Counted from the first letter of the stretch, positions 7,135 to 21,418 are shown. The stretch: 48,112 bases of DNA from Candidatus Woesearchaeota archaeon (GCA_018303105.1 JAGVYU010000012.1:1-48112), one strand, 5' to 3'. A program made the numbers and translations. Notes: a model not told the origin generated them from the letters alone.

Positions 7135-7242
7135 ACCGGGGCAATTTCACTTTATAAGGTTTTTCTTTTTGACGGGGCATCATACAAGAAAGATGTAAAA
7201 GAAACCCTAAAGTATTTAAACGAAATTGCATTTTGAAGCTGG

Positions 7243-8442
7243 ATGCAAGTGGGCATTGTAGGCAAGGCGAACGTTGGAAAGTCAACATTTTTCAAAGCAG
7301 CAACACTGGCTGAAGTGGAGATCGCGAATTACCCTTTCGCAACGATTAAACCCAATACGGGCGTAGGGTATGTGAAAGTCCCGTGTGTGGATAAGGAGCT
7401 TAACACGCAGTGCAATCCAAGAGAAGGATTTTGCATTGAACATAATCGGTTTGTGCCCGTTCAGATGATAGACGTCGCAGGACTAGTCCCGGGTGCTCAT
7501 GAGGGCAAAGGCATGGGTAACCAGTTTCTCGATGACTTAAACCAGGCAGATGTACTTATTCACGTTGTTGACGCAGCGGGATCAACGAATGAAAAGGGGG
7601 AGTACCAGGCTCCAGGGTCAAATGATCCTATTAATGATATCAAATTCCTTGAGATTGAGCTCGACATGTGGTACCTAGGAATGATGAAGAAAGTCTGGGA
7701 ACGGTTCTCACGGCAGGTAACCCAAGAAAATCTTGAGAATTACAAGGCGATTGTCAAGCAGTTCTCAGGCCTCGGTGTGTCTGAGACGATTGCAAAAATA
7801 GCGATGAAGCAACTCAATCTGGAGAGTAAGAAGATCGGCCAGTGGAGTGAAGAGGAAACCTTCCATCTCGCGCAATTGTTAAGAAAGATGACGAAGCCCA
7901 TGATTATTGCTGCGAATAAGATTGATGTTTCTATCGCGCGGGAAAACCTGAAGCGCATGCAGCAGGCGTTTCCAGAGTATAAGATCATCGGATGTTCAGG
8001 AGATTCTGAGCTTGCGTTGAGGGAAGCCGCAAAGCACGGGCTCATCAAGTATATTCCGGGAGAAACGGAGTTCCATATTGTGGATGATGCAAAGCTGAGC
8101 GACAAGCAAAAGGCCGCCCTCGCATTTATCAAAAGCAATGTGCTCGACCCTATGGGAAGCACGGGTGTGCAGCATGTTCTGGACGCTGCCGTGTTCGAGC
8201 TGCTTAAATACATTGCCATCTTTCCCGGGGGAGTGCATAAGCTCGAAGACCAGTTTGGAAGAAGACTTCCCGATTGTTTTCTCATGCCTCCGGGAACGAC
8301 CGCGTTGAGTTTCGCGTTCAGAGTCCATACGGATCTTGGCACTCATTTCATTCGCGCAATAGACGTAAGAACAAAAATGGCCGTGGGAAAGGAACACCCC
8401 TTGAAACATCGGGATATTATTGAGATTGTGAGCGGCAAGTAA
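7243..8442 (+). CDS. ychF: Obg-family translation-associated NTPase YchF (archaeal type)
   Basis: GKANVGKST, NYPFATI, DVAGLVPGAHEGKGMGNQFL, ANKID, C-terminal TGS (AFRVHTDLG); Cys-containing insert typical of archaeal members. Confidence 0.93.
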   Translation: MQVGIVGKANVGKSTFFKAATLAEVEIANYPFATIKPNTGVGYVKVPCVDKELNTQCNPREGFCIEHNRFVPVQMIDVAGLVPGAHEGKGMGNQFLDDLNQADVLIHVVDAAGSTNEKGEYQAPGSNDPINDIKFLEIELDMWYLGMMKKVWERFSRQVTQENLENYKAIVKQFSGLGVSETIAKIAMKQLNLESKKIGQWSEEETFHLAQLLRKMTKPMIIAANKIDVSIARENLKRMQQAFPEYKIIGCSGDSELALREAAKHGLIKYIPGETEFHIVDDAKLSDKQKAALAFIKSNVLDPMGSTGVQHVLDAAVFELLKYIAIFPGGVHKLEDQFGRRLPDCFLMPPGTTALSFAFRVHTDLGTHFIRAIDVRTKMAVGKEHPLKHRDIIEIVSGK

Positions 8443-9676
8443 TATCCATTCCCAGCTTTTTGAGTTTTGCATCGAACATCATATAGCCCCTCTGGATATG
8501 CTCAATTCCTGATATCATTGTCGTATTCTCCGCAGCGCTCGCTGCCAGAACAAGCGCGGCTCCTGCGCGCAGGTCAGTTGCGGTTACGTTCGCTCCGGAG
8601 AGAGATGCCCCTCCAGGAATATGTGCTGCGTCTCCTTTGACCGTTATCCCGGCGCCTAAGCGGTTTAACTCATTGATATATGCAAAACGCTCCGAAAATA
8701 CAGTATCCTTAACAACGCTTTTTCCCGCTGCCCGGGCAAGCGCAGCCGCTACGATAGGCTGAAGATCCGTTGGAAATCCAGGATACGGCTTTGCCATGAT
8801 ATGCTGCCCTGTTAACGCTCTGTCGCGATACGCCCGCATGACATTTTGTTTTATCTCCGTTCGAATCCCCAGCGCATGCGCGATCTTGATCGGTGTTGCA
8901 AGATGCTCAGGATTCACATTCTGGATTCGAATGTCATTTCCTTGCAGCATTCCTGCGAGGAGAAGAAACGTTCCCGCTTCAATTCTGTCTGGAATGACAC
9001 GCATCCGGACTCCTGACAGCCTGGACACTCCGCTTATTTTCATAGTTCGGTTTTCTACTCCGATATCGACCCCAGCCGCCCTGAGGAAATCGACGAGCTG
9101 CATCGTTTCCGGTTCAATCGACGCGTTAGAAAGTATAGTAGTTCCCTCCGCACACGCAGCTGCGAGAAGGGCCTGCTGTGTCGCCCCTACACTTACGTGA
9201 GGGAAATCAATGCACGCCCCTTTAAGTTTTTTCGCGGTGAGTTCATACTGTCCATGCCTCACGCGTATGACTGCGCCCATTCTTCGGAATACGAGTTCAT
9301 GCAGGTCTGTTGGCCTGGGTCCTAAGATACATCCACCGGGAATGGCGATCGTCGCACGTCCCATCGTGCTGAGCAGCACGGATGCGAAGAGGATAGACGC
9401 GCGGAGCTTTCCCATATGTTCGTACGTTGCTGCAGCTGATGTGAGTTTATTCGCAAAGATTCGGATATGATCCTGTTGTGTTTTGATAGAGACTCCCAGC
9501 TCCTGAGCGATGGAAATCATATTGTCAATATCAGTTAGCGAAGGAATATCCTCAAGTACGCATGGTTTCCGTGTTAATACTGCCGCGGCAATGAGGGGAA
9601 GCGCAGCGTTTTTAGAGCCTGAGATACTCACTGATCCCTGTAATCGTTTTCCGCCTCTGATTACAAAGTTAGCCAT
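8417..9676 (-). CDS. murA: UDP-N-acetylglucosamine 1-carboxyvinyltransferase
   Basis: GSKNAALP, LRASI, PGGCILGPRPTDLH (active-site Cys loop), SVGAT, DRIEAGT, YPGFPTDLQP, DLRAGAAL, IQRGY; start at MANFVIRGG. Confidence 0.96.
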   Translation of the reverse strand: MANFVIRGGKRLQGSVSISGSKNAALPLIAAAVLTRKPCVLEDIPSLTDIDNMISIAQELGVSIKTQQDHIRIFANKLTSAAATYEHMGKLRASILFASVLLSTMGRATIAIPGGCILGPRPTDLHELVFRRMGAVIRVRHGQYELTAKKLKGACIDFPHVSVGATQQALLAAACAEGTTILSNASIEPETMQLVDFLRAAGVDIGVENRTMKISGVSRLSGVRMRVIPDRIEAGTFLLLAGMLQGNDIRIQNVNPEHLATPIKIAHALGIRTEIKQNVMRAYRDRALTGQHIMAKPYPGFPTDLQPIVAAALARAAGKSVVKDTVFSERFAYINELNRLGAGITVKGDAAHIPGGASLSGANVTATDLRAGAALVLAASAAENTTMISGIEHIQRGYMMFDAKLKKLGMDITCRSQSQ

Positions 9677-10538
9677 ATGGAATAATCTCCACTTCAGGCT
9701 GCAACAGCACACCTGATTTCTTTTTTACGGTTTTTTGAATGTGGCGGATAAGCCATACAATGTCACGCGACGTGGCATTTCCCGTATTCACTATCCAGTT
9801 TGCGTGATGCTCGGACACTTTAGCTCCTCCTTTTTGAAACCCCTTTAATCCTGCTGCTTCAATAAGCTGCCATGCTTTCCTGCTCTTTGGATTAATAAAG
9901 GTAGATCCAGCACTGGGCTCACTGAGGGGTTGTGTTTGAGTTCGATAGATTAGGGTTTGTTTTATCGTCGCTTGAATAAAGGTGTTTGGCTTGCTCACGA
10001 GTTTAAATGTTGCCTCAACGATAATATGACCCCGCATTCCTCTATGATACGCAAATGAGAGTTTTGATTTGGGCAGTATTTTTGTCCCTTGAGGTGTAAG
10101 CACCGTCACACTCTCTAAGACATCACTCGTCTGCACGCCATATGCTCCCACATTATTTGCGACTGCTCCCCCGACGCTTGCCGGGATTCCTATTAATTTC
10201 TCCAAACCCGAGAGATTATGGGCTGCGCATTTCAAGATAAGGCTTGATAAGGGCAATCCAGCTCCGACGCGTACGCGCTTGCCAGAGAACGTGAGGGCCA
10301 TGAGCTTTTTGAGCGAGATCACGCATCCCTTATACCCCTTGTCGGAGAAGATAAGATTTGAACCTCTCCCCAGGATAACATAGCGTATGTGCTCCTTGCG
10401 CAGCCGTGCAATAAGAGATTGAAGTTCTTGAACATTCTCAGGCGTAGCAAAGTATGATGCTGGTCCTCCCACCTTCATGGTTGTGTGGTGTGATAAGGGT
10501 TCTTTTTCCCGGACATTACGGCTTTTTAGTGCGTGCAT
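9669..10538 (-). CDS. murB: UDP-N-acetylmuramate dehydrogenase
   Basis: LSHHTTMKVGGPA, LGRGSNL, GIPASVGGAVANNVGAYG, QP...PSAGSTF.NP, HANWIVN, LQPEV. Confidence 0.95.
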   Translation of the reverse strand: MHALKSRNVREKEPLSHHTTMKVGGPASYFATPENVQELQSLIARLRKEHIRYVILGRGSNLIFSDKGYKGCVISLKKLMALTFSGKRVRVGAGLPLSSLILKCAAHNLSGLEKLIGIPASVGGAVANNVGAYGVQTSDVLESVTVLTPQGTKILPKSKLSFAYHRGMRGHIIVEATFKLVSKPNTFIQATIKQTLIYRTQTQPLSEPSAGSTFINPKSRKAWQLIEAAGLKGFQKGGAKVSEHHANWIVNTGNATSRDIVWLIRHIQKTVKKKSGVLLQPEVEIIPYG

Positions 10539-11571
10539 GATCGTTCAGTATTGTTTTAACAATGAGGGGCGTTGGGTTGCCGGGTAGGCATGCTGCGCAT
10601 GCGTTGGACATCGCTCGTAACCTCTTCTGCGTAAGCAAGCGCAAGGTGGGAAGTAGCTCCTTATGAAGCCGTTGCGACGGAATCATGATAGCGGTTCCTT
10701 TATGCGCGGCGTACAGCGCATTATACAACTGGTGGTTGTCCTTCACGTGCGGATGCGGAACGATGATTGCGGGTTTTCGCGCTGCCCATAATTCAACAAG
10801 GCTTGTCGCTCCTGCCCTGCATAGAACAACGTCTGCAGCTGCGTAATAAGCGCTGAGGTCTGCCAAAAAGTCCCGTACAATCATTTGTTTATATGTACTG
10901 TATTTCGGAAGCAGGGGATCATAATATTTTTTTCCCGTGACGTGAATAATGAAGATGTGTTTCTTCTTTAATCGAGGGAGAATGCTGCATACTGCCTCAT
11001 TAATGTCCTTCGCTCCATTCGTGCCTCCAAATGCGAGGAGGACAAACGTGTGTCTGGGGATGCGGAGTTTCTTACGTGATCGTGCTTGGGAAAGATGGAA
11101 GAGATGGGATGCCACGGGATTTCCGCAGAGCATTGTTTTCGATTTGAAATATCGCTCTGGTCCTGGCAGGAATGCAATGTTCAATTTGGAAAACCTGCTC
11201 AGGAGCCGGTTTGCTCGTCCCGGCAGCGCGTTTTGCTCGAAGAGGTATACGGGAATGCGAAGCGATCGCGCAGCGAGCACCGCCGGAATAGTAAAGTATC
11301 CCCCCATGCTGAGGACAATCCCGATTTTTTTTTGTTTTAGAATGGTTCTCGCGTCAAGATACGCTTTCGATAGCTGCATGAGAAACCGAGGAGTTTCAAT
11401 AAGCGTATGCTTCGCTTCAAGATCAAGCAGGAAAGGGGTTCCGGACACATAAGGCTTCATGGCACGGTCCGTGAGATAAAAGACATTATGGCGCTTTCGC
11501 AGCGTCTGTGCGAGCACATTCCCCGGCTTGACATGGCCCAATGTTCCCCCCGCCACGATTGCAATGCGCAT
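10516..11571 (-). CDS. murG: Lipid I GlcNAc transferase (GT28)
   Basis: GGTLGHV, MGGY, EQNALPGRANR, GNP, FGGTNGA, RAGATSLVE, HQLYNA; start at MRIAIVAGG. Confidence 0.94.
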   Translation of the reverse strand: MRIAIVAGGTLGHVKPGNVLAQTLRKRHNVFYLTDRAMKPYVSGTPFLLDLEAKHTLIETPRFLMQLSKAYLDARTILKQKKIGIVLSMGGYFTIPAVLAARSLRIPVYLFEQNALPGRANRLLSRFSKLNIAFLPGPERYFKSKTMLCGNPVASHLFHLSQARSRKKLRIPRHTFVLLAFGGTNGAKDINEAVCSILPRLKKKHIFIIHVTGKKYYDPLLPKYSTYKQMIVRDFLADLSAYYAAADVVLCRAGATSLVELWAARKPAIIVPHPHVKDNHQLYNALYAAHKGTAIMIPSQRLHKELLPTLRLLTQKRLRAMSNACAACLPGNPTPLIVKTILNDHARTKKP

Positions 11572-11590
11572 GATATGATGACAGATCGCT

Positions 11591-11604
11591 GATTTATAAA
11601 GATA
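11591..11604 (-). promoter_or_regulatory. Archaeal TATA box upstream of murG-murB-murA
   Basis: Minus-strand CTTTATAAAT about 20-30 nt upstream of the murG ATG (11571), the same geometry as housekeeping genes in the window. Confidence 0.55.
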
Positions 11605-11696
11605 GTGGACCATAGCGGATCGAGATTGCGTAAACACTGGGCTATTTAAGAATGCGGTAAACTTATAAAACCAAGCTGTGTTTCTAAGGGGGACGT

Positions 11697-12044
11697 ATGA
11701 AAAAAACAGGCCCTGTTTTAACGGGAATAGGTGCGAGCGCTGGCATCGCGGAAGGATTCGTTAAGATCGTGGAGGGAATACGAGACATATCAAAATTTAA
11801 CGAGGGGGATATTTTGGTGACGGAAATCACTGAACCTTCGATGGTGATAATGATGAATAAGGCTGCGGCCATTGTAACAAATCTGGGTGGGATAACCTCT
11901 CATCCGGCTATACTTGCCCGTGAGCTCGGGATCCCCTGTGTTGTTGCAACCAAAACGGCTACGACCATGCTGAAGGAAGGAATGAAAGTTAAAGTTGACG
12001 GGACCAAGGGTGAGGTCTACATCGCTGAAGATGATAAAGAATAA
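11697..12044 (+). CDS. Stand-alone PEP-utilising enzyme phosphohistidine (swivel) domain protein
   Basis: GIGASAG.AEG, GDILV...TEP, GGITSHPAILARELGIPCVV, VKVDG.KG. Confidence 0.88.
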   Translation: MKKTGPVLTGIGASAGIAEGFVKIVEGIRDISKFNEGDILVTEITEPSMVIMMNKAAAIVTNLGGITSHPAILARELGIPCVVATKTATTMLKEGMKVKVDGTKGEVYIAEDDKE

Positions 12045-13131
12045 CCAGCAGCAGTATCCTGAATGGATAGATGAGTTTGCTAGATCGTTTCATCATGCCT
12101 TTAAAAAAATGGTTCCTACAAGCTGGGGTCCTGTTGACGGGTGGGCGCTGCTCTCGCATCTGAATGGCTCTTTTATAAGGAAACTTCATCAGTCGGTTAA
12201 GAAGGTAAAAGAAAAAGAGACCTCTATAAAAGAAGTTGCTGAGAGTTTTTCTTGCCCTTCAACACTACGTCTTGCTTTATATTTTCTCGCCCTTGAATAT
12301 CAGTTCCAAAGCGACAAGGATAAAAAGCAATTCAAAGAGATAATAGAGTTTTTTATTGATGTTCTTAAAGAGATGATCAGAGAAGATATTTTTGCATATG
12401 ATAGAAACATCACACATACCTCCGAGGAAATAAAAAATATCGTAAACAGTACTCCATGGATAAAAGCAGACATTCCCATGGCAAAGGAGGTTGGAAAATT
12501 ATATAGTAGCTTAGCTTCTTTGGTGTATGCAGAGTATAGGGATTTTTTCCCCCAAGATGCACATGATATTTATGGACCCTATGATGTATCGAGCAAATTC
12601 GGGAACGAAGCAATCCTCCTTATAAAGCACTTCATAAAAATTCGCCCTAAGGAAATATGGCCAGATCTCAAATCTTCCTATGATGATGTAAAAATATTTC
12701 AGGTGCTGAAGCACGTTAAATTCAGTTGTGAAGTTATTGGTATGCATTCTCTTTATGAAGGAGATATTGTGAGGAATACCGTTGCACTAGCAGTAAGGAT
12801 TAACAACAAATTCGTTGATGATATACGTGAGGTCGGGCGTGCTCATGAAGAGATTGCCAGAATCGCCACCGACCATTCACGGGTATATGGGGACATGTCC
12901 GAGGCAGAAGTAAAACTTAAGTTTTTGGAATGGTTATGCTACCAGTTCTTTGGATTCTTCCGGATAGCGAATGTTGACTGGCGTCCTACTCAGGAAATGA
13001 TGAGGAGTGTTAAAGATAAGCAAATTCCGAATAGATGTGAAATTAAAGAATTTCCATCATGGGAAGAATACCGCTCAAGTAAGAACTTTGAAATCTTCTG
13101 GTTAAAAGATTTGTACCATAACAGTCATTGA
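12031..13131 (+). CDS. Hypothetical protein coupled to the PEP-swivel gene
   Basis: Long ORF, ATG at 12031 overlapping the upstream gene end, visibly AT-richer than the flanking mur genes; no motif recognised. Confidence 0.7.
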   Translation: MIKNNQQQYPEWIDEFARSFHHAFKKMVPTSWGPVDGWALLSHLNGSFIRKLHQSVKKVKEKETSIKEVAESFSCPSTLRLALYFLALEYQFQSDKDKKQFKEIIEFFIDVLKEMIREDIFAYDRNITHTSEEIKNIVNSTPWIKADIPMAKEVGKLYSSLASLVYAEYRDFFPQDAHDIYGPYDVSSKFGNEAILLIKHFIKIRPKEIWPDLKSSYDDVKIFQVLKHVKFSCEVIGMHSLYEGDIVRNTVALAVRINNKFVDDIREVGRAHEEIARIATDHSRVYGDMSEAEVKLKFLEWLCYQFFGFFRIANVDWRPTQEMMRSVKDKQIPNRCEIKEFPSWEEYRSSKNFEIFWLKDLYHNSH

Positions 13132-13158
13132 AAAAAATGAAGAAAAAAAGGACACACG

Positions 13159-14049
13159 CTAGAGTGAAGCAACAACAAAAACAAGAGTTAAAGTGAGGGT
13201 GAATATCCAAGATGTGACTGCGATCGTCTGCTCCCCCCATCCAAGCCGGAGAAGCACATAGTGAAATGGCGCGATGGGGAAAAGAGTTCTCCCAAGAACC
13301 ATTCGGGAAAGGATTTGAACAATTGATGTTCCTCCTTCTATAACAATAAAAAGTCCAGCGATAAAAACGAAATATTTGAGCTTTGCGAAGATCGCAATCA
13401 TCGCGAGGAGTGATCCCAATAAGCTGGCCCCCGCGTCTCCCATGAACAATTTCGCGCGCGGAGCATTAAACACAAGAAAACCCGCGGTTGCTCCAATCAC
13501 TGCAAGGACAAATGGTACAAGAGCTGTTGACGCAATGGCCAGGAGTATGAAAAACAGGCCTGAGAGGATAATGATAAAGTTCCCCGCGGCCATGCCATCC
13601 AAACCGTCTGTAATGTTGAATGCGTTCACGAAAAATACGAGGAATAATCCGTTAAACAGGAGATATGGGATGCTTCTTGACGTGGTATAATAAAAAACGA
13701 TGCAGAACGCGACTGCGAGAATGAATTGAAGGATGAGTCGAGTTCTCCAGCGCAATCCCGTCGCGCTTCTCCGCGTGATCTTCAGGGCATCATCGGTTAC
13801 GCCTATCGCAAAAAAGAGTGTGGCAAAAACGAGGATGATAAAATAGTCTGACGTATAGAGGAAAGGTAGAGAGGCAACAAGCGCAAGCAATATGATGATG
13901 CCACCCATCGTCGGCGTTCCTTGTTTCTTCTTGAATGACTGTAAGAGCACGAATTCTTTAATTCCAATCTTGCGTGCAAGAGGAATATAGAAGAGTCCAA
14001 ACAGTACACAGAGGATTAGAGGTACAAAAAAGCTAAGCGCCATACTCAT
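13159..14049 (-). CDS. mraY: Phospho-N-acetylmuramoyl-pentapeptide transferase
   Basis: KKQGTPTMGG, G..DD, NAFNITDGLDG, FNAP.AKLFMGDAG, IEGGTSIVQ, FPIAPFHY; multi-TM. Confidence 0.9.
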   Translation of the reverse strand: MSMALSFFVPLILCVLFGLFYIPLARKIGIKEFVLLQSFKKKQGTPTMGGIIILLALVASLPFLYTSDYFIILVFATLFFAIGVTDDALKITRRSATGLRWRTRLILQFILAVAFCIVFYYTTSRSIPYLLFNGLFLVFFVNAFNITDGLDGMAAGNFIIILSGLFFILLAIASTALVPFVLAVIGATAGFLVFNAPRAKLFMGDAGASLLGSLLAMIAIFAKLKYFVFIAGLFIVIEGGTSIVQILSRMVLGRTLFPIAPFHYVLLRLGWGEQTIAVTSWIFTLTLTLVFVVASL

Positions 14050-14070
14050 GAACTGTAGCTCAGAATGCGG

Positions 14071-14080
14071 ATTTATAAGG
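14071..14080 (-). promoter_or_regulatory. TATA box upstream of mraY
   Basis: Minus-strand CCTTATAAAT about 22-31 nt upstream of the ATG at 14049. Confidence 0.45.
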
Positions 14081-15815
14081 TTTTGGGCACTTTCAGGAAG
14101 GGCGTGGGATCCACGGGGATTTTGTTCTTTCGTACCTCAAAATGGAGATGTGTGTAATCATAAACGGTTCCATCTGAGGGTACATTTCCTGTTCTTCCCA
14201 CATATCCAATGCACTCACCGACTCGCACAGTTCTTGGATGACCCTCGAAACTGTCCAAATGTGCGTACCAAAACTCAAAATGTCCGCGCGCGACAATAAC
14301 CGTGTTCCCATAAAGATCCGATATCTCGTGGCGCATACGTCCACGTGCCACGGAGTATACCGGGTCTTTCGCATCCGCAGGCAAATCAATCCCTGTATGA
14401 TAATCGCCGCCTCGTGCCGCCATATAGTATCCAATCGGACGTGGCACCACATGTGCAGCAAGTGGATATGCTTTCGTGTTTGAGTTGTGTTTAATTTGGC
14501 TTGCGAATGTGTCAAGCCCAACCATGCGCGACCCTTTGAGGAGGATAGCATCTCCTGGTTTTGTGTAGGAGAACAGCGCTTTGGTAAGGAGTTCTTTAGT
14601 TGCGCAGAGAGTATATTGGAGATTGCTCTTCCTGAGTACCTTGGCGGTAGTGCGAACATGTTCACCTAACAGAAAAATATGGTCGAATGGAGCTCTAGCA
14701 ATGATGCCTGCTGCTTCTTCATGTTTTTTCGCAGTCCATTTTCCAAGCTCGGCCATATCCCCAAATACAATTAACTTTCTTCTTTTTCTTGTGATCGCAA
14801 CAAACGCCCCTACCGCATTTGCGAGGGATGCGAGATTCGCGTTGTATGAGTCGTTGTAGATGAGCACGTCATTAACAAAGAAGACCTGAGACCTGCCCTG
14901 AAGAGGGAGATAATTGAGCATTGCGTTCTGGATATCCCGTGAGGAAATGGAAAACTGCGATGCAACTGCGATCGCTGCGAGTGTATTGAGCACGTTATGC
15001 GTTCCAGGCACGGGAATCCGCAGCGTAAAAGATTCTCCTGGAGTGTTCACGCGACCGTTCGTAGCTCCGTCTGGAAGTATCCGAATCGAATGAGCTCGAA
15101 TGTGTGCATCAGGGTGTATTCCAAACGTGACAACTTTTGTTTTTGCAAGCGCGTGCATGGCGTCATAATATGGAGAATCCCTATTGAGCACAATGATCGA
15201 ATGCTTGACTGTGTTCAAGTAGCGTATAAGCTCTGTTTTGGCTTCGAAAATCGCCTTCTGAGATCCAAAAGCGCCAATGTGCGCATCATGAATGTTTGTA
15301 ATAATCCCAATAGACGGTTTAGACATCCTGCACCGATGCATGATCTCTCCCTTCTTGGATACGCCTGCCTCCAGAACGGCGATATCATGGTGTGAGGTTA
15401 AGCGGCTCAATGTCAGGGGAAATCCCTGCTCACTATTGAAGTTTCCGGCGGTTTTCAGCACAGAATATTGTGTGCTGAGCATGAGCGCGAGCATTTCCTT
15501 CGTCGTTGTTTTCCCATTGCTGCCGGTTATAAACACAAGCGGTATGCGAGTACGGGCTCTTCGGAACGCTGCAACATCATCAATGGCTTCTTGAACACTG
15601 GCCACACGAATAATTCGCTTGTCCTTCGGAGCTTGTTTTTTGTTTGTAAAGATATATGCTGCTCCCCTCGTGAGCGCATCTTCAACATAGTCGTTTCCAT
15701 CAACATATCTCCCTTTAAACGCGCAAAAAATGTCTCCTTTTTTGATTAGTCTTGAATCTATCTGTAAACGTGCATGAAGGGCTGCAGTTTTTGAGAGACG
15801 GCTAAGCACGCTCAT
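14073..15815 (-). CDS. murF: MurF (D-Ala-D-Ala adding ligase) fused to a C-terminal M23 metallopeptidase
   Basis: IDSR, GRYVDG, ITGSNGKTTTKE, GNFNSEQGFP, EAG, NI..AHI, HN..N, NDSYNAN, GDMAELG, LLKGSR; then HTGIDL, YGN.V, YAHL, IGYVG.TGN, HLHFEV. Confidence 0.92.
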   Translation of the reverse strand: MSVLSRLSKTAALHARLQIDSRLIKKGDIFCAFKGRYVDGNDYVEDALTRGAAYIFTNKKQAPKDKRIIRVASVQEAIDDVAAFRRARTRIPLVFITGSNGKTTTKEMLALMLSTQYSVLKTAGNFNSEQGFPLTLSRLTSHHDIAVLEAGVSKKGEIMHRCRMSKPSIGIITNIHDAHIGAFGSQKAIFEAKTELIRYLNTVKHSIIVLNRDSPYYDAMHALAKTKVVTFGIHPDAHIRAHSIRILPDGATNGRVNTPGESFTLRIPVPGTHNVLNTLAAIAVASQFSISSRDIQNAMLNYLPLQGRSQVFFVNDVLIYNDSYNANLASLANAVGAFVAITRKRRKLIVFGDMAELGKWTAKKHEEAAGIIARAPFDHIFLLGEHVRTTAKVLRKSNLQYTLCATKELLTKALFSYTKPGDAILLKGSRMVGLDTFASQIKHNSNTKAYPLAAHVVPRPIGYYMAARGGDYHTGIDLPADAKDPVYSVARGRMRHEISDLYGNTVIVARGHFEFWYAHLDSFEGHPRTVRVGECIGYVGRTGNVPSDGTVYDYTHLHFEVRKNKIPVDPTPFLKVPKTL

Positions 15816-16803
15816 ATATGTACCGGGCGAGTTTCCTCACTTCTGGATTAAAGCTCAGCTTGAATTTTCCGTACCCTTGAATATTTGGTTTATGACCTAT
15901 GAGGGAGATAGGAAATAATCCCCACAGATTATACTCGGTATGCCCTAAAGTCTTGTAGTGTTGGATAATTCGCCATTGGAGCAGGTTATTTGCCGCAGTT
16001 TTGAACGCAACATCGTTGGAAGCGCCGTATACCCAGTTGATTTTTCGCTTGAATTTCCATATCCATGCTGCTGCGATAATCTCGGAATTGCGCCTCGCGA
16101 TCCACATATCTGCACCATCGTGCTCACGATACTTTAAAAATTTGTGCCTAAGAGCCTTGAAGGGTAAAACCTGTGCTCCCTTCGCATGCATACGTTTCTC
16201 ATAGAGAGCGTAGAAAGATATGAATGCATTATCGCTGTTATCAATGGCGATCGCCAGCGACTGTTTCTCCGCATAGCGTATAGCCGTTCTGCATTTTTTA
16301 TTAAAGGACATGAACAGAGAATCGAGTGGTTGCTGAAGATCTATGAGCGTTGTGATATCCTGTTGGTCTGTACATTGCCTCTTTCCACTGACAAGCGAAA
16401 TGGCATTGTCAGCATAGAGAATAATTTTCAGCGCTCGAGTTACGCGCGGCAACTTCATGATTTCCGTAAACATCATACGGCAAAGCGTTTTTCGGTGCCT
16501 TACTGAGTCAATAATCACAGGAGCATTTCCTGAACGCGTGCCAAACTCAATACCTGTGCTTAACCAGGGCACGCGAAACTTAAGGAGGCTTTTCAAAGGG
16601 TGCCCACGCTCGGCATAAACCTCGCCCACAAGGACGGCAATCGGCTGTCCATGCTCATACGCGCAGAGATACACACAAGGATGTCCAATGTCTTGCTGAG
16701 TCATGTAGTAGAGCGGCGTATGGAAAAAATTCGCGTCCTTGGAATGCGCAAGAACATATTCCCAATCCTCAATATTAACGTCTGTTCTGAACGTGGTGCT
16801 CAT
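15802..16803 (-). CDS. FemABX-like GNAT peptidyltransferase
   Basis: W...L......NFFHT, IDL...L..L...F.KK.R..IR.A.K, F..FY.LY, YGAS, ANNLLQW.II, YNLWG, FK.SF; start at MSTTF. Confidence 0.78.
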   Translation of the reverse strand: MSTTFRTDVNIEDWEYVLAHSKDANFFHTPLYYMTQQDIGHPCVYLCAYEHGQPIAVLVGEVYAERGHPLKSLLKFRVPWLSTGIEFGTRSGNAPVIIDSVRHRKTLCRMMFTEIMKLPRVTRALKIILYADNAISLVSGKRQCTDQQDITTLIDLQQPLDSLFMSFNKKCRTAIRYAEKQSLAIAIDNSDNAFISFYALYEKRMHAKGAQVLPFKALRHKFLKYREHDGADMWIARRNSEIIAAAWIWKFKRKINWVYGASNDVAFKTAANNLLQWRIIQHYKTLGHTEYNLWGLFPISLIGHKPNIQGYGKFKLSFNPEVRKLARYIYERA

Positions 16804-18196
16804 GCGGCAGCTGCTCCGTATATTTCTGTAATGCTCCTTCAAAATTGCTTGAGGACATGAAGAGGACAGCAGTTGGGATTGAACCGTGGCGTTTGAGATA
16901 TGTCACAACGACTTCAGCGGTCTCAATACACTGAACATGAGGATGTTTGAGAATCCGCGCATAGTCTTGAGGTGTTGCAAGCTGTTCTTTCGTGAGAAGC
17001 CGTGATGGCTGCACCCGGTAAATAATCACTTCATCAGCGTCGTTGAATGAATCCATGTAGCGTGCAACATAGCGTTTATTCCTGCTGCTTCCCGTATACG
17101 GTTCAAAGAGCGCTATGAGGTGATGGTGGGGAAACTTCTGCTTCACTGCTCGCACGGTCTCACGCACTTTGCTCGGCTGATGCGCGAGGTCATCAATGAC
17201 GATGAGTGTAGGGCTTTTATACACGATCTCCTGCCTGCGCTGTGTTCCTCTAAATGTCCGAAGCGCTTTTTCAATTGCGGAGTCTGGTATTCCAAGCGTT
17301 TTCGCAACAAGGATCCCGGCGAGCATGTTTTCGACATTGTGCTCTCCATAGAGAAATGCAGCATAGTGATTTGATTTTCCTTCGTAGAGAACATCAAATG
17401 TTGTAAGCGGATTATAGATGATGTGGCGCGCAGAAATGGCTGATGAGGGCTGTAGTCCGTATGTTAATCCGGTTTTTTCGGCATGGGTAAGCACAACAGA
17501 AAGTTCTTTGTTGTGGTCAGATACTATGACGTGGGCATCGGATTTAAGACTTTGGAATAAGTGAACATATGCTTCCTGATATTCCTTATCCGTCGGATAC
17601 ACATTAATGTGATCAAGTTCAGCGCTTGTGAGTACAACGATATCAGGATGGTAATACATGAATTTCGGCTTTTGATCCGCATCTGAGCATGGATATTCGT
17701 CGCCTTCAATAACAAAATACTTTGATTTAGTGATGCGGAAGCTTTTGTCAAGGTTTTTTGGGATGCCGCCAATCAAATAGCTGGGTTGCTCTCCCGCGGT
17801 TTCGAGAATCCACGTTATGATCGCCGTTATCGTTGTCTTTGCGTATGTGCCCACAACGCATATGACCGTGTAGTCTTTGAGGATATCCTCAAGAAGCTCT
17901 GGGAAGGACACAATTTTGATATTTTTCTTCTTCGCTTCTACATATTCTGGATTGTCCAGGAAGGCATGCCTTCCCAAAACGACAAGATCTATATCATCCG
18001 TAATGAATGTAGCATCATACCCGGATTTTTTGAGGATTCCCCGCTTCTCAACAATCGTTTTAACGGGATCGTACGCCTCGTCATCCGAGCCTGTCACTAT
18101 GAATCCCTGGTCCTTGAGCTCAATCGCAATTGCGCTCATAGCAACACCCGCAACTCCAATGAAATGGATTTTTTTAATGCCTTCGAGCATATGCAT
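16775..18196 (-). CDS. mpl: Mur ligase of the MurC/Mpl family, most similar to murein peptide ligase Mpl
   Basis: IHFIGVAGVAMS, TGSD, GTYAKTT, PSYLIGGIPKN, FVIEGDEY....D.KPKF..YHP, ELDH, RRQE, DDLAHQP, FEP; the EGDEY..DxxxKF insert and FEP are Mpl-like. Confidence 0.72.
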   Translation of the reverse strand: MHMLEGIKKIHFIGVAGVAMSAIAIELKDQGFIVTGSDDEAYDPVKTIVEKRGILKKSGYDATFITDDIDLVVLGRHAFLDNPEYVEAKKKNIKIVSFPELLEDILKDYTVICVVGTYAKTTITAIITWILETAGEQPSYLIGGIPKNLDKSFRITKSKYFVIEGDEYPCSDADQKPKFMYYHPDIVVLTSAELDHINVYPTDKEYQEAYVHLFQSLKSDAHVIVSDHNKELSVVLTHAEKTGLTYGLQPSSAISARHIIYNPLTTFDVLYEGKSNHYAAFLYGEHNVENMLAGILVAKTLGIPDSAIEKALRTFRGTQRRQEIVYKSPTLIVIDDLAHQPSKVRETVRAVKQKFPHHHLIALFEPYTGSSRNKRYVARYMDSFNDADEVIIYRVQPSRLLTKEQLATPQDYARILKHPHVQCIETAEVVVTYLKRHGSIPTAVLFMSSSNFEGALQKYTEQLPHEHHVQNRR

Positions 18197-18210
18197 TGGG
18201 CACAGAGAAT

Positions 18211-18220
18211 GTTTATAAAG
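18211..18220. promoter_or_regulatory. Putative bidirectional TATA box between mpl and the DUF4015 gene
   Basis: Palindromic TTTATAAA in the 39-nt divergent spacer. Confidence 0.5.
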
Positions 18221-18235
18221 ATTGTGTGGATATAA

Positions 18236-19267
18236 ATGGAGATGAAGCTTATTCCGATCATTGCAGCGACATTCTTACTCGTGGGTTGCTCTGGCATCTC
18301 CGACAAACCCGATGCATCGCGCGGCATCTACCTCAACGCGTGGCTTGCGGGAAATGAAATCCGGCTAAACGAGTATGTTGTACGTATGCGCAACACGGGA
18401 ATAAATACTGTAATTATTCACATGCAGGACACGGACGGCATTTTACCGTATGATTCAAAGATTCCTTACGCAATTGAGATTAACGCGACAGAAATACGCA
18501 TCAAGAACGTCTCTGCGTTAGTTGATCGGCTCCATGCTGATGGATTCTATGTTATTGCTAAAGTGGATACGTTTAAGGATAGAAAATTAGCATATGCGCA
18601 TCCAGAGTACGCATTTTCGTATAAGAATGGCTCTCTCTTCGAAGACCGGTTTGGAGTGCACATTGACCCGAATAATCCGGTTGTGTGGGAGTATAAAAAA
18701 GCAATCTACGAAGAGATGTTTGATTTTGGATTTGATGAAGTAATGATTGATTATATTCGGTATCCAGAGCGGGCATACTATGGTGCTCTTAATTCCCCTT
18801 TCACGAAGGGTGATACAAGTATGGAAACTATAGAAGGATTTATGCAATATATACGGGCTAGTCTTCCGTATCAGACTTTTTCTGTGGCGATTTTCTCTAA
18901 TGTATGTCTTGGTGAAGACCATGCGATTGGCCAAAGTGTGGATATCTTTGCACCGTACGTTCAATATATATCCCCCATGCTCTATGTTAGCTTAGATCCA
19001 TATGAGCCCTGGCAGGATGCACGTGGATTTATCGCCAAAAGGACAGAGGCATGCCTCATCAGGATTCAAGGCTCCAATGCCAAACTCCGTCCTTGGCTCC
19101 AGGGATACTCGGACAGATACCAGACTATGAATGCTTCTGCAATACAGCAACAAATAAAAACAGTTGAGCGTTTCCCTGGCGTCGCAGGATGGCAAATATG
19201 GAATTCGGCTGGAAACTATAATGCAACGTTCAAAGCGCTTGAGGAGAATAAGAGTAACCGCGGCTAG
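18236..19267 (+). CDS. Putative glycoside hydrolase lipoprotein (DUF4015-like TIM barrel)
   Basis: Lipobox LLVGC; RGIYL, YVIAK...FKD, IDP....VWEY, GFDEV..DYIRYP, IGQ, YISPMLY, LRPWLQ, WN. Confidence 0.8.
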   Translation: MEMKLIPIIAATFLLVGCSGISDKPDASRGIYLNAWLAGNEIRLNEYVVRMRNTGINTVIIHMQDTDGILPYDSKIPYAIEINATEIRIKNVSALVDRLHADGFYVIAKVDTFKDRKLAYAHPEYAFSYKNGSLFEDRFGVHIDPNNPVVWEYKKAIYEEMFDFGFDEVMIDYIRYPERAYYGALNSPFTKGDTSMETIEGFMQYIRASLPYQTFSVAIFSNVCLGEDHAIGQSVDIFAPYVQYISPMLYVSLDPYEPWQDARGFIAKRTEACLIRIQGSNAKLRPWLQGYSDRYQTMNASAIQQQIKTVERFPGVAGWQIWNSAGNYNATFKALEENKSNRG

Positions 19268-20012
19268 CGTTCTCATCCTGATCATCTGTATCAGTGTATT
19301 GCTCTTCATCCTCACACCTTCAGTAGATAATGTTGAGGGATATCGCCCTAAGGCAGAGTTTGTGTACAATTCCCCTCTTGGTTCAGACGTCACTTTAAAT
19401 GCAACAAACAGCTCATACATCCCATTGAATGACCTTCCTGATTTTTTAGTGAAAGGTATTGTGGCAGTTGAGGATCGCAGATTCTATTATCACCCCGGCA
19501 TTGATCCTATCGCGATCGCGCGTGCGGGAGTCCAAGCTGTCCGGAATCCAGAGAGAATTCAAGGTGCAAGCACAATCACGCAGCAGCTCGCACGCTCGGC
19601 ATATCTAAGTCAGGAAAGAACACTCTCCCGCAAGATGGAGGAGATGATTCTTGCTTTAAAGATCGAATATGCATACCCAAAAGAGAAAATCCTTGAATTT
19701 TACTTCAATGACGTATTCTTTGGGGATCAGATATATATGGATGTATCATATGACCTTACAGTGTACGGTGTTCAGGATGCATCACGATTTTTCTTCGGGA
19801 AAAACGCTTCTAACCTGAGCATATCAGAGGCAGCTTTTCTTACTGCTATACTCAAAGGTCCAAATTATTATCTGACAAGACCTGAAGAGCTTGAAAAACG
19901 TAGACAAGTAGTGCTTGAGATTTGGAGTAGGGAGCATATTATTTCTGAAGAAGAGTATTTAATAGCTCTCCGAGAGCCTACGCAGATAGTACAATCCAAA
20001 GCCGCATCGTAA
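19221..20012 (+). CDS. Monofunctional peptidoglycan transglycosylase (GT51), no transpeptidase domain
   Basis: N-terminal TM; GT51 motifs EDRRFYYHPGID, GASTITQQLAR, RKMEE, KEKILEFYFN, YGV..AS..FFGK, EAAFL; ORF ends after the GT domain. Confidence 0.92.
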   Translation: MQRSKRLRRIRVTAASVLILIICISVLLFILTPSVDNVEGYRPKAEFVYNSPLGSDVTLNATNSSYIPLNDLPDFLVKGIVAVEDRRFYYHPGIDPIAIARAGVQAVRNPERIQGASTITQQLARSAYLSQERTLSRKMEEMILALKIEYAYPKEKILEFYFNDVFFGDQIYMDVSYDLTVYGVQDASRFFFGKNASNLSISEAAFLTAILKGPNYYLTRPEELEKRRQVVLEIWSREHIISEEEYLIALREPTQIVQSKAAS

Positions 20013-21206
20013 TACGGCCATGATGAGCAGCGCAGATGTTGTTGCAATAGCCCCTCCGATCATGCCATAACCGGGGATTAAAAGCGCGTTGAGGATAATA
20101 TTTGCAACAGCCGCCACAGCCGCGATTGCAAGGATAAGCGGTGTTTTCTTCATGGACGCCAATGTTGAGTTAAAGACGCTGAATGGTAAGGATACAAAGT
20201 ATCCCCATGCAAGGATAACTAGGGGTATAACCCCGAGGATATATGCCTCTCCAAAAAAAGTCTGCAGGAGAATCCTTGGGAAGAAAATAAAAAGCAAAAA
20301 CAAAGGCGCGCTGAGGATGAGAATTGTGAAAAATGATCGTATTACCAGTGATTTCGCTTCCTGTGTTTTTTCCGCCATAATGTGGGTTGTCATTGTGGGA
20401 ACAAAGAGGTATAATACCGCTTCCTGAACAACGAGAAGGAGCGCCGCTGTTGGAAGCGCAACGCTGTATATCCCTGCCTCTGAGCTTCCCCTGATGTATC
20501 CAATCATTAAGACATCTGTCCATCGGATGATTAAGTAAAAGAAGCCTGAGAAAAGGAGAGGTAATGAGTAGAGCAGGGGTGTTCTAAAGTCGTATGATGA
20601 CTGTGAAAAGGAGGGCCAAACAAGAAAGAATGCGATTACGCATGTAATGATGAGGGTAAGCGCATGCGCCCATGCTGCCATGGACACCGAGAGAACGAAT
20701 GAGAACAAGAAGAGTGTGAGCACGACTTTAAGGACGCTGTCTCCAAGGTAGCGTAATGAGACATTCGCAAAGATTCGCTTCTCCGCCTGCAGGACAGAAA
20801 ACAGAAGCCATCCGATTGACGCAAAGGGTATGCTTATGGAAAGGATTCTCAGAACTGTTGCAAGCTCCTGAATCTTAAATCGCTCTGCAAGCATTGGCGC
20901 GAAAAACCAAAGCAGTACTGCCAGGAAGATGGAGGCAATACATGCAAGGACAAGCGACGACACGAGATACTGGTGTTGTTTGCGCGGCGCTCCTTTGTAA
21001 TAGGGAAGATGGCGCAAAATACCCTGATCCAGACCAAGAACGCTGATCGTGAACACGATGCCAAAGATAGCCAGGGCGATGCTGAAGACTCCATATTGCT
21101 CTGGCCCGAGCTTAGAGAGGACAATTCGATAGACATAGCCGAGGAGTTTAGCGAGGGATATAGCAATGAGAACAATCCCTGTTGCTGATGTGATTATCTT
21201 GCGCAT
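19959..21206 (-). CDS. MOP-superfamily flippase (Wzx/MurJ-related)
   Basis: About 12 TM; LGPEQYG, LGL..G, D.LMIG....S.EAGIY..A, LN.LLIP.YG..GGAIAT. Confidence 0.85.
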   Translation of the reverse strand: MRKIITSATGIVLIAISLAKLLGYVYRIVLSKLGPEQYGVFSIALAIFGIVFTISVLGLDQGILRHLPYYKGAPRKQHQYLVSSLVLACIASIFLAVLLWFFAPMLAERFKIQELATVLRILSISIPFASIGWLLFSVLQAEKRIFANVSLRYLGDSVLKVVLTLFLFSFVLSVSMAAWAHALTLIITCVIAFFLVWPSFSQSSYDFRTPLLYSLPLLFSGFFYLIIRWTDVLMIGYIRGSSEAGIYSVALPTAALLLVVQEAVLYLFVPTMTTHIMAEKTQEAKSLVIRSFFTILILSAPLFLLFIFFPRILLQTFFGEAYILGVIPLVILAWGYFVSLPFSVFNSTLASMKKTPLILAIAAVAAVANIILNALLIPGYGMIGGAIATTSALLIMAVLRCGFGLYYLRRLSESY

Positions 21207-21250
21207 TAAGTTGATTTATGATTTATGCATAAAAAGGTTTGGTAAGCACA

Positions 21251-21373
21251 GGCTTCGGTGAAAGTCTCTTCTGGCCTAGCGACGCGAAAGTTCATTTTTC
21301 GTCCTCCAACCAGCTTTCTGATGGTAGCTCCTCGCTAAACCGTCAGGATGGGCCGGACATTTTCACCAAAGCC
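21251..21373. mobile_element. 123-bp MITE with IS903-like (IS5 family) ends and a 9-bp target site duplication
   Basis: Terminal inverted repeats GGCTTCGGTGAAA / TTTCACCAAAGCC (12 of 13 match); flanking direct repeat GTAAGCACA at 21242-21250 and 21374-21382; no coding capacity. Confidence 0.82.
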
Positions 21374-21418
21374 GTAAGCACAGGAATATTTATAATAGGA
21401 AAGTCATGTGATCACGGT

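Follow-up and report, generated by a model that had tools for sequence, protein, structure and literature searches.

The window (the whole 48,112-nucleotide stretch of DNA that was analysed, from a Candidatus Woesearchaeota archaeon of groundwater origin and small genome) carries a cluster of genes resembling those for bacterial murein synthesis (Table 1). Murein is generally held to be absent from archaea, which makes such genes unexpected here. A sequence-only reading had placed a murein gene set in this archaeal chromosome, and all nine functions that it named were found by family models; the span that it gave, 8417-21206, has as its exact limits the murA end and the flippase gene start. 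The family models confirm a predicted bacterial-type lipid II gene set, intact and conserved but lacking several standard steps, inside this small-genome archaeon. The cluster also holds three features beyond the earlier reading: a MurF-M23 fusion, a gene pair made of a PEP-utilizer and an uncharacterised protein, and a DUF4015 gene.

Table 1. Features of the cluster and its flanks. Scores are followed by family cut-offs where available; dN/dS is from the comparison with the second species of the genus.
Feature	Coordinates	Strand	Support	dN/dS
tRNA-Thr(UGU), short intron after anticodon, flank marker	5167..5256	-	ARAGORN; Rfam tRNA 56.9 bits	
Archaeal-type YchF-related GTPase	7243..8442	+	NF007171 543 bits (387)	
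MurA, UDP-GlcNAc enolpyruvyl transferase	8417..9712	-	TIGR01072 445 bits (393)	0.158
MurB, type II UDP-N-acetylenolpyruvoylglucosamine reductase	9669..10538	-	NF010480 314 bits (259)	0.155
MurG-like GT28 glycosyltransferase	10516..11637	-	both Pfam GT28 domains; TIGR01133 225.5 bits (250)	0.176
Stand-alone PEP-utilizers swivel (phospho-His) domain protein, 115 aa	11697..12044	+	PF00391 93.7 bits	
Uncharacterised swivel-domain partner, 366-378 aa	11995..13131	+	no Pfam or NCBIfam match	
Short bacterial-type MraY, 296 aa	13159..14049	-	Glycos_transf_4, MraY_sig1; TIGR00445 147 bits (192)	
MurF with C-terminal M23 metallopeptidase fusion, 580 aa	14073..15815	-	TIGR01143 369 bits (289); Peptidase_M23 61 bits	0.213
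FemAB/FemX-like GNAT transferase	15802..16842	-	Acetyltransf_6 45 bits; FemAB 37 bits	0.127
Mpl-like (MurC/Mpl-type) UDP-MurNAc ligase	16775..18196	-	three Mur ligase domains; murC 274 bits (335), mpl 247 bits (389)	0.097
DUF4015 putative glycoside hydrolase-like lipoprotein	18236..19267	+	PF13200 200 bits	0.109 (first 539 nt)
Monofunctional GT51 peptidoglycan glycosyltransferase	19164..20012	+	Transgly 188 bits	0.292
MOP-superfamily (Wzx/SpoVB/MATE-like) flippase candidate, lipid-linked sugars	19959..21206	-	Polysacc_synt 87, Polysacc_synt_3 69, MatE 59 bits	0.166
ALG10/DIE2-like GT-C	21239-22648	+	Pfam	
Wzy_C ligase/polymerase-like	22585-24021	+	Pfam	
PTPS-related membrane protein	23905-26184	-	Pfam	

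The predicted makers of UDP-MurNAc, MurA and MurB, both score over the NCBIfam equivalog cut-offs, and their catalytic residues align. Against structure 3r38, MurA keeps its Lys, the Cys loop (GGC...RPxDLH), PGFPTD and RGY; databases give a 419-aa form of the protein, starting 12 codons further downstream. MurB aligns over its full length to 4pyt; its Arg and C-terminal Glu are kept, as is the Ser within AGSxFxNP. In MurG, the motifs GGTLGH, EQNA, RAGA...E and HQxxNA align with 3s2u. MraY retains GTPTMGG, DD, NxxNxTDGLDG and FMGD, with HHH changed to HYV, and this is one exception to the largely intact catalytic motifs noted earlier, with which the alignments to solved structures (MurA, MurB, MurG, MraY, GT51 and M23) agree; we take the motif residues to have the roles that they have in those structures. 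Of the 401 phylum genomes, none scores higher on TIGR00445 than this MraY; outside the genus, the runner-up reaches 76 bits.

Each genome of the genus (G000 and G001) yielded only three Mur ligases: the Mpl-like enzyme, MurF, and a MurE of the mDAP type (596 bits vs a cut-off of 373, DNPR motif present). In the source MAG, MurE lies on a different contig from the cluster (C7), where it adjoins Topo VI A and B, a RIO kinase and a KH protein. Among the best 120 homologues listed for the Mpl-like ligase, 26 were named, 25 of them Mpl, one 'peptidoglycan synthetase' and none MurC, the names being source annotations rather than assays; the enzyme perhaps works like Mpl. Because its score lies under the TIGR01081 cut-off of 388.7 bits, it is not filed as an Mpl member. 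Its P-loop is unusual (GTYAKTT), whereas that of MurF reads GSNGKTT. No transmembrane segment separates the two parts of the MurF-M23 protein; the M23 domain contains HxxxD and HxH (best match 3slu), is closest to a Neisseria M23 protein and, with no signal peptide, is located on a cytoplasmic enzyme. Only two proteins, both from this genus, have the fusion among the best 120 homologues listed. The Atlas model of the Fem-like protein matches FemX-family clusters (TM 0.82), and its gene is intact in G001 (89% identity, gap-free).

Glycan polymerisation, which calls for GT51 or SEDS, would be served by the GT51 protein. Aligned to 2oqo, it shows EDRRF, GASTITQQ and RKxxE, with the glutamates of EDxxF and RKxxE present; translation likely starts at the Met at codon 20, and a transmembrane segment at residues 31-49 provides an N-terminal membrane anchor. 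The flippase candidate has ~14 hydrophobic segments and falls in the MOP superfamily, with no MurJ-family match listed. A bacterial-type BacA/UppP (~200 bits) is present in both G000 and G001, in the source MAG on contig C58, and its family matches only bacterial genomes in the control panel. Two cis-prenyltransferase genes (PF01255) were found in G000 and none in G001. The DUF4015 protein bears an N-terminal signal and an LVGC lipobox.

A homologue sharing 48% identity with the swivel-domain protein occurs in another genome of the phylum (G245), where paired MurB and MurA genes lie ~7 kb away. For its uncharacterised partner, 233 representative homologues were obtained at E<=0.001, and of 10 that were scanned, 5 are themselves joined to a PEP-utilizers domain, in one case together with PPDK_N. 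The AF2 model of this partner is confident (pLDDT 96.2), and comparison of its fold returned no PDB match (Foldseek E of at least 0.19, VIA Z of at most 2.8). Beyond the flippase gene, the three membrane glycan genes at 21239..26184 are collinear in G001:C37 (dN/dS 0.16-0.23) and may extend the envelope island.

Several steps of murein synthesis were not found in either genome of the genus: MurC proper, MurD, alanine racemase (Alr), DapF and SEDS, while Ddl and the PBP (PF00905) and YkuD (PF03734) transpeptidases gave no matches in the two genomes. Since both are incomplete MAGs (92% and 95% complete), these absences mean 'not found' and are unproven. From the genes found, canonical lipid II could not be made de novo, and this part of the earlier reading is not supported as stated. 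What stood is that the cluster is real, intact, under purifying selection, not of the pseudomurein type and borne by a DPANN-like archaeal chromosome. If the archaeon makes and polymerises MurNAc-containing lipid II, as had been suggested, it would do so in a non-canonical version.

We infer from these genes every enzymatic step below, as well as salvage and the kind of product. MurA and MurB would supply UDP-MurNAc, to which the Mpl-like ligase would add the first peptide unit. This peptide is most likely ready-made, from bacterial wall debris, rather than L-Ala alone, a suggestion made because the nearest named homologues of the ligase are Mpl and because no MurD, Ddl, Alr or DapF turned up in the two genomes. 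The mDAP-type MurE and MurF would then extend or complete the stem, with a side-chain residue possibly contributed by the FemAB-like enzyme. MraY and MurG would assemble a lipid-linked disaccharide-peptide on polyprenyl phosphate, the MOP flippase would export it, the membrane-anchored GT51 would polymerise glycan strands, and BacA would recycle the carrier pyrophosphate. As no transpeptidase was found, a murein-like glycan layer that is either un-cross-linked or cross-linked in an unconventional way is a more probable product than a classical sacculus. We give slightly better than even credence to such a functional but non-canonical lipid II-like pathway, in which the stem is probably salvaged and the glycan polymerised without known cross-linking. 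Nevertheless, several observations sit poorly with it. MurG, MraY and the Mpl-like ligase all score under their equivalog cut-offs; MraY has HYV in place of HHH, and the ligase P-loop carries Ala at a position that is usually Gly. The presence of MurE would be odd if whole tripeptides are ligated, a source of D-Ala-D-Ala for MurF is not evident, and a glycan without cross-linking would not bear load. Moreover, the helpers expected for salvage, an Opp/MppA-type binding protein and an SLT lytic transglycosylase, were not found.

We considered whether a bacterial contig or fragment had been mis-binned or mis-joined into an archaeal MAG, given that the source MAG consists of 72 contigs with 1.59% estimated contamination and that in L053, a contig from a public metagenome, 624 bp of the Mpl-like gene adjoin unrelated DNA. 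However, the genome is archaeal (TBP, Topo VI, intron-bearing tRNA); TBP occurs in both G000 and G001, and in a control panel of 14 genomes its family matches only the four archaeal ones. Archaeal markers lie on both sides of the cluster on the same contig. Of those named earlier, the intron-bearing tRNA-Thr (19 nt directly after the anticodon, where the tRNA model has 2) and the archaeal-type YchF-related GTPase are flank markers; pilin-like N-termini are present at 41438 and ~46333, not beside the cluster. The model NF007171 exceeds its cut-off in four of the 14 control genomes, which its output does not name. The 3' end of the GTPase gene overlaps that of murA by 26 nt, and this junction is kept in G001:C47 and covered without differences by a contig from run X6. 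Furthermore, the cluster recurs together with its two junctions and flanks at ~90% nucleotide identity in G001, which represents a second species of the genus, on contigs collinear with window positions 676-11709, 13361-25512 and 25493-30000. A single 20,626-bp contig from run X1 covers 6984-24999 with 0 differences at a flat depth of 10.8 and spans both edges with no chimeric break; it counts as a second assembly, not a second sample, because X1 may be the source sample. Three other studies yielded low-depth pieces with similar depth in flanks and cluster. The composition of the cluster matches the remainder of the genome, with a tetranucleotide correlation of 0.956 against 0.921 (sd 0.045) for randomly drawn 12.8-kb pieces, MurE (next to Topo VI) and BacA lie on separate contigs elsewhere in this MAG, and no bacterial homologue above 47% identity was seen among the best 120 of 8000 scored candidates for each of three protein queries against 5.8 billion proteins. 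We therefore give almost no credence to an artefact. Decaying or functionless remnants of an old transfer are very improbable too: the missing MurD, Ddl and transpeptidases and the three sub-threshold family scores would fit decay, but catalytic motifs are kept and each of the 10 genes compared from the cluster remains intact in both species, which are ~10% apart in nucleotides, the G001 copies having no stops or frameshifts. Their dN/dS of 0.10-0.29 is like that of flanking housekeeping genes (0.02-0.32), which indicates purifying selection instead of the neutral values that might have overturned the earlier reading. What is shown for the locus is thus which genes it holds, that their motifs are intact, that its context is archaeal, and that it is conserved and under purifying selection.

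The enzymes might instead be active but repurposed, with a lipid-linked MurNAc- or enolpyruvyl-sugar unit feeding another archaeal glycoconjugate (a surface-protein glycan, capsule or membrane anchor), joined by the ALG10-like, Wzy_C and PTPS-related enzymes and with no murein-like polymer. The cluster does run straight into those three membrane glycan genes, three of its enzymes score under equivalog cut-offs, and no transpeptidase was found in the two genus genomes. MurB-MurA pairs occur without the remaining pathway in four other genomes of the phylum, hence the two enzymes can be put to other uses in such archaea. Yet a coherent murein set is made up by a canonical mDAP-type MurE (DNPR present), a MurF that scores over its cut-off, a GT51 in which every catalytic motif is kept, and BacA, and we know of no role for GT51 enzymes other than as lipid II polymerases. 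Non-murein roles for archaeal MurA and MurB are also suggested in the available part of Subedi et al. (PMC10117817). On balance, repurposing seems unlikely. We also regard as quite improbable a system for interacting with bacteria rather than for the cell's own envelope, whereby muropeptides are recycled or consumed from a bacterial host or necromass, or wall precursors or glycan are made to bind or modify a partner's wall. Attachment to or attack on bacterial walls has been proposed for Woesearchaeota and Pacearchaeota (PMC8204110 and PMC9723730, in their available parts), and the recycling-type first ligase, the Neisseria-like M23 domain fused to MurF and the secreted DUF4015 lipoprotein would suit this idea, as would GT51 domains in large proteins of 18 further genomes of the 401, mostly without MurB. 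On the other hand, SLT, an Opp-type binding protein and any known muropeptide uptake system were not found, the M23 domain is cytoplasmic, and recycling needs less than a full MurA-to-GT51 set.

Collectively, a bacterial-type gene set that has long resided and been selected in this archaeal genus is the best explanation, one that, taken as a whole, we place just on the likely side. The full set is confined to the genus among the 401 phylum genomes sampled, and no report of such a pathway in an archaeon was found in the searchable literature. No donor is identifiable, since even the nearest bacterial homologues do not exceed 47% identity.

Compared with the bacterial murein pathway, the MurA, MurB, MurE, MurF, MraY, MurG, GT51 and BacA homologues are of bacterial type with catalytic motifs kept. 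The differences are the archaeal host, an Mpl-like first ligase rather than MurC, a generic MOP flippase rather than MurJ, the fusion of MurF to M23, and MurD, Ddl, Alr, DapF, PBP/YkuD transpeptidases and SEDS not being found here. The canonical dcw order is mraZ-mraW-ftsL-ftsI-murE-murF-mraY-murD-ftsW-murG-murC-(murB)-ddl-ftsQAZ, whereas the order here is murG-murB-murA and mpl-fem-murF/M23-mraY, with no fts genes and with murE on another contig. Chlamydiae, Planctomycetes, obligate intracellular bacteria and moss chloroplasts have reduced or relocated murein pathways, where, as here, part of the set persists in a genome of small size or away from free-living bacteria. Those lineages descend from murein-bearing bacteria and, as far as is known, keep MurC, MurD, Ddl and PBPs, unlike the present archaeal host, where these parts were not found.

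Pseudomurein synthesis in Methanobacteriales and Methanopyrales likewise combines an archaeal host, Mur-type ligases and a MraY-family transferase, and the nearest structural cluster of the Fem-like protein is 58% archaeal, most commonly Methanobacteriota. A pathway of this type was nevertheless rejected, as the pMurC, pMurD1/2, pMurE and MraY_archaea models scored 34-86 bits vs cut-offs of 450-610 (MraY 86 vs 450) and MurA and MurB are present. GT51 is also present in this archaeon; to our knowledge, pseudomurein organisms have none. They also lack MurA and MurB, according to the available part of PMC10117817. Similar to Mpl-dependent muropeptide recycling in Gram-negative bacteria, the first ligase is nearest to Mpl-named proteins and the de novo steps of L-Ala and D-Glu addition were not found here. 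Bacterial Mpl, however, works alongside MurC and MurD, while the ligase here seems to be alone, scores under the TIGR01081 cut-off and has no MppA/Opp-type uptake protein found with it. Lastly, natural Mur chimeras in the available part of PMC10214165, a survey of proteins >600 aa only, comprise MurE-MurF, MurC-Ddl, MurC-MurB, MurG-MurC, MurD-FtsW and MraY-MurG; MurF-M23 is absent from these types but, like them, joins a Mur ligase to a second wall-related domain.

The window is contig C2 in full (48,112 bp) of G000, a genome of 1.30 Mb in 72 contigs, estimated to be 92.1% complete and 1.59% contaminated. G000 was compared with G001, a 95% complete MAG from another species in the genus, at about 90% nucleotide identity. 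The two measure 1.3–1.4 Mb, and listed genomes of the same order measure 0.6–2.1 Mb. A search for SSU rRNA gave no match in either genome, hence their archaeal identity rests on protein markers. TBP was found in both; in a control panel of 14 genomes (four archaea, ten bacteria), this family passed only in the four archaea. McrA was searched for and was not found; this result and the small genome sizes of the order speak against a place in Methanosarcinales, and a DPANN-type lineage suits better. Consistent with the sequence-only reading, archaeal markers also lie on the contig of the cluster itself: a tRNA-Thr with an ~17-nt insert after the anticodon, a YchF-related GTPase (543 bits, with a model that only four of the 14 controls, not named here, pass), and pilin-like N-termini. 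The 3' end of the GTPase gene overlaps murA by 26 nt. Further markers of this kind in the right part of the window are a FlaI-like ATPase, a KaiC-type ATPase, and PilC-like proteins. Two proteins with pilin-like starts are encoded downstream of the FlaI-like and PilC-like genes, with which they may form an adhesion pilus system.

In the cluster at 8417–21206, two compact operons on the minus strand are accompanied by a few genes on the plus strand. MurA, MurB, and MurF scored above the NCBIfam cut-offs, and MurG, MraY, and the Mpl-like ligase (the first Mur ligase of the cluster, in the place of MurC) below them. Alignment with solved structures showed that the Lys, Cys-loop, Asp, and Arg motifs of MurA, the Arg, Ser, and Glu of MurB, the G-loop, EQN, E, and HQxxN of MurG, and both glutamate motifs of GT51 are conserved. 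MraY retains DD, DGLDG, and FMGD, with HYV replacing HHH, and the M23 domain fused to MurF has HxxxD and HxH. The roles of these residues are presumed to be those in known MurA, MurB, MurG, MraY, GT51, and M23 enzymes. The FemAB-like protein had no match in a PDB sequence search.

Features of the cluster, its contig, and related loci. Positions are those of the window unless a genome contig (G:C) or an extracted locus (L) is named.
Feature	Position	Strand	Place
murA	8417-9712	-	operon 1
murB	9669-10538	-	operon 1
murG	10516-11637	-	operon 1
PEP-utilizers swivel-domain protein, 115 aa	11697-12044	+	between operons
partner of swivel-domain gene, about 366-378 aa	11995-13131	+	between operons
short MraY	13159-14049	-	operon 2
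MurF fused to M23 peptidase	14073-15815	-	operon 2
FemAB-like GNAT	15802-16842	-	operon 2
Mpl-like ligase	16775-18196	-	operon 2
DUF4015 lipoprotein	18236-19267		right of operons
GT51, monofunctional, membrane-anchored	19164-20012		right of operons
MOP flippase	19959-21206		right of operons
ALG10-like GT-C, Wzy_C protein, PTPS-related membrane protein	up to 26184		after flippase
FlaI-like ATPase and two PilC-like genes	35011-38370
1633-aa protein, VWA domains, pilin-like (class III signal-like) N-terminus	41438-46339	+
328-aa protein, pilin-like (class III signal-like) N-terminus	46300-47286	+
IS200/Y1-type transposase	G000:C7, L052:16837-17310	+	about 360 bp from murE
BacA/UppP	G000:C58:1326-2099; G001:C66:4735-5463
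UppS-type cis-prenyltransferase	G000:C65, L116:4758-5456	+	beside DedA/VTT gene
DedA/VTT-domain protein	G000:C65, L116:5562-6212	-	beside UppS-type gene
MurB-MurA pairs	L033 (G337:C32), L034 (G245:C31), L035 (G197:C19), L036 (G054:C75)		same order; rest of cluster not nearby
GT51 genomes outside the genus	G018, G355, G245, G182, G135, G137, others (L041-L050)

MurA, the first enzyme of the cluster that holds the swivel-domain gene and its partner, is itself a PEP-consuming enzyme. The partner belongs to a family of 233 representatives; in five of ten scanned members a single chain also contains the swivel domain, and one of these five has a PPDK_N ATP-grasp domain as well. Its AF2 model is very confident (pLDDT 96), with no PDB fold match and no usable match in the Atlas. 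The partner may act as substrate module in an uncharacterised phosphotransferase that depends on PEP or ATP.

The sequence-only reading had placed this bacterial-type cluster inside a DPANN archaeal chromosome, and that observation is confirmed. Contigs of G001 are collinear with the window at 676–11709, 13361–25512, and 25493–30000, therefore both cluster edges are conserved, and 11709–13361 is the sole part of the cluster lost to an assembly gap there. A separately built 20,626-bp contig from run X1 (depth 10.8) spans 6984–24999, and so both edges, with no difference; since X1 is possibly the source sample, this is a second assembly rather than a second sample. Runs of three other studies gave low-depth pieces with similar depth in the flanks and the cluster, and one such piece (run X6) spans 8328–8552 with no difference. 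Altogether, the stretch is present in 19 runs from 10 studies, labelled as groundwater or soil metagenomes; three of these runs are possibly the source, and no RNA run is listed among the 19. The tetranucleotide correlation between the cluster and the rest of the genome is 0.956 (0.921, sd 0.045, for random 12.8-kb pieces). Given the archaeal markers, conserved edges, X1 contig, depth, and composition, an assembly artefact is very unlikely.

Between G000 and G001, dN/dS was 0.097–0.292 in the ten cluster genes compared (0.02–0.32 in flanking genes), with no stops or frameshifts in the compared genes; the neutral dN/dS expected of inactive enzymes was not seen, and the catalytic motifs are conserved. 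An apparent stop in the G001 FemAB gene from the blastn-based dN/dS analysis was rejected as an alignment artefact. We conclude that the cluster is real, archaeal, and under selection. Elsewhere on the window, a 394-aa ORF with no family match (2424–3608, minus strand) has two stop codons and no gap in the aligned frame of G001, and is either no real gene in that frame or a pseudogene in G001. In run X4, one low-depth contig lacks 132 nt of the ALG10-like gene at its 5' end (21241–21374), and could represent a strain variant with an in-frame deletion.

Next, we looked for the remaining steps. In both genomes the Mur ligases number only three, the third being a canonical mDAP-type MurE on contig C7 of G000 (596 bits against a cut-off of 373, with DNPR and GTNGKTT), where it adjoins Topo VI A and B, a RIO kinase, a KH protein, and an IS200-type transposase. 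The nearby transposase fits a murE that moved or was acquired apart from the main cluster. Both genomes encode BacA/UppP undecaprenyl-diphosphatase (about 200 bits), a family that passed only in the ten bacteria among the 14 controls. Two cis-prenyltransferases were found in G000, a strong UppS-type one (256 bits) on C65 and a weaker one on C4, and none in G001. DedA proteins, one of which is encoded beside the UppS-type gene, have been linked to polyprenyl-phosphate recycling. MurD, Ddl, PBP transpeptidase, YkuD, SEDS, alanine racemase, DAP epimerase, the Opp-type binding protein (SBP_bac_5), and SLT were not found in either genome, at 92.1% and 95% completeness. The sole match to Asp/Glu racemase was an aspartate racemase-like contig-end fragment in G001 with no counterpart in G000, and the GlmU search gave only short nucleotidyltransferase-like matches below the cut-off.

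Origin was judged from source names and pairwise identities. Of 120 listed MurA homologues, the best one outside the genus is 46% identical, and those with names are spread across Clostridia, Bacilli, Deltaproteobacteria, Ignavibacteriales, and other groups. Listed MurF homologues outside the genus are at most 39% identical, and among all those listed only the two genus proteins carry the M23 fusion. For the Mpl-like ligase, one listed, unnamed protein reaches 47% and the others at most 39%; all 25 enzyme-specific names were Mpl and none MurC. A MurA scan of genome contigs returned only the contig of the congener and no donor. An alignment scan of metagenome contigs with the Mpl-like ligase gave 58 loci, one 99% and one 41% identical (the latter on a 2-kb contig), the rest at most 36% on their best segments. 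The 99% locus is L053, a 4568-bp public metagenome contig whose first 624 bp are 99.4% identical to 17753–17130 of the window, within the Mpl-like gene, and whose remaining 3.9 kb has no match in G000. Either its assembly is chimeric or it comes from a strain in which the gene is disrupted or rearranged.

MurA was found in both members of the genus and in no other relative out of 39; these gave only four weak AroA-like matches. Across 401 genomes of the phylum (280 genera), the cut-off was passed by MurB in six, GT51 in 20, MurF in two, and MraY in none; the MurF sample included two unpublished genomes, with weak matches only, and the MraY score of the genus, albeit below the cut-off, is far above that of the other genomes in the sample. 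The four non-genus MurB genomes have only a MurB-MurA pair, 30–38% identical to the proteins here. A Mur-ligase-like gene directly follows MurB in G054, a MurF-like ligase (230 bits) shares the contig of the pair in G337, and G245 also has a GT51 protein. These pairs look like separate, partial acquisitions. GT51 domains outside the genus (Transgly, Pfam cut-off) lie mostly in frames of 560–1476 aa, with a few shorter fragments; most of the genomes bearing them lack MurB, and one is a closed 1.3-Mb genome. These surveys confine the full set to the genus among the genomes searched. Judging from composition and identities, the cluster has been resident long enough for its composition to be native, and its donor is not identifiable.

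A non-canonical murein-type pathway is, on sequence grounds, plausible. MurA and MurB would make UDP-MurNAc. The peptide that the Mpl-like ligase would attach to it is probably salvaged, as the searches revealed no de novo route to L-Ala-D-Glu, mDAP, or D-Ala-D-Ala. The stem would be completed by MurE, MurF, and the Fem-like enzyme. MraY and MurG would build a lipid-linked unit for the MOP protein to flip and for GT51 to polymerise, with BacA recycling the carrier. Because no transpeptidase was found, the predicted product is an un-cross-linked or unconventionally linked glycan. We speculate that the cytoplasmic M23 domain on MurF trims imported peptides.

Several observations count against this pathway, namely three family scores below threshold, the odd P-loop of the Mpl-like ligase, and the odd HHH motif of MraY. 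Salvage is further weakened by the lack of an uptake system among our search results, and salvage of tripeptides in particular fits poorly with the presence of MurE. There are four rival explanations: the genes might have been repurposed for another glycoconjugate, they might serve a function directed at bacteria, or the pathway might be decaying, a reading disfavoured by the dN/dS values and intact frames of the compared genes; artefact, very unlikely as noted above, is the remaining rival. The most specific version of the murein-type pathway is that the genus is the first archaeal lineage to coat itself with a true murein-type glycan of MurNAc and GlcNAc, made from its own UDP-MurNAc and D-amino-acid peptides scavenged from bacteria, via the Mpl-like ligase and the unique MurF-M23 fusion. 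We consider this version possible, albeit rather unlikely.

Textbooks hold that Archaea have no murein, a rule on which both cell-wall antibiotics and innate immune sensing depend for their selectivity. With a nearly complete lipid II and GT51 gene set under selection in an archaeon, the rule can be put to a direct test through muramic-acid chemistry, enzyme assays, and D-amino-acid probes. Moreover, the cluster is a natural case of an envelope pathway of many genes passing between domains, suggests a possible form of murein synthesis fed by salvage, adds MurF-M23 as a new enzyme fusion, and gives a clue to a possible life on or alongside bacteria in some DPANN archaea. Were surface murein fed by scavenged peptides to prove true, the line that textbooks draw between bacterial and archaeal walls would be blurred, and the archaeon would depend on bacterial neighbours or hosts.

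Where DPANN papers (e.g. PMC8204110, PMC9723730) touch on peptidoglycan, the passages concerned treat its degradation, not its synthesis, and the words 'peptidoglycan' and 'murein' are absent from two DPANN overviews. Subedi et al. (PMC10117817) list six MurA and eight MurB matches in non-pseudomurein archaea, with a role left unexplained in the relevant passages, and the pertinent part of a Mur-chimera survey restricted to proteins >600 aa (PMC10214165) does not list MurF-M23. The sequence-only reading had suggested a possibly undescribed system; in agreement, full-text searches of the open literature, supplements and subscription papers apart, turned up no description of a pathway of this kind in DPANN archaea. 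Compared with pseudomurein synthesis, the cluster is of the bacterial type, not the pseudomurein type. Compared with every described murein pathway, it differs in its host domain, its ligase set, its missing cross-linkers, and its MurF-M23 fusion.
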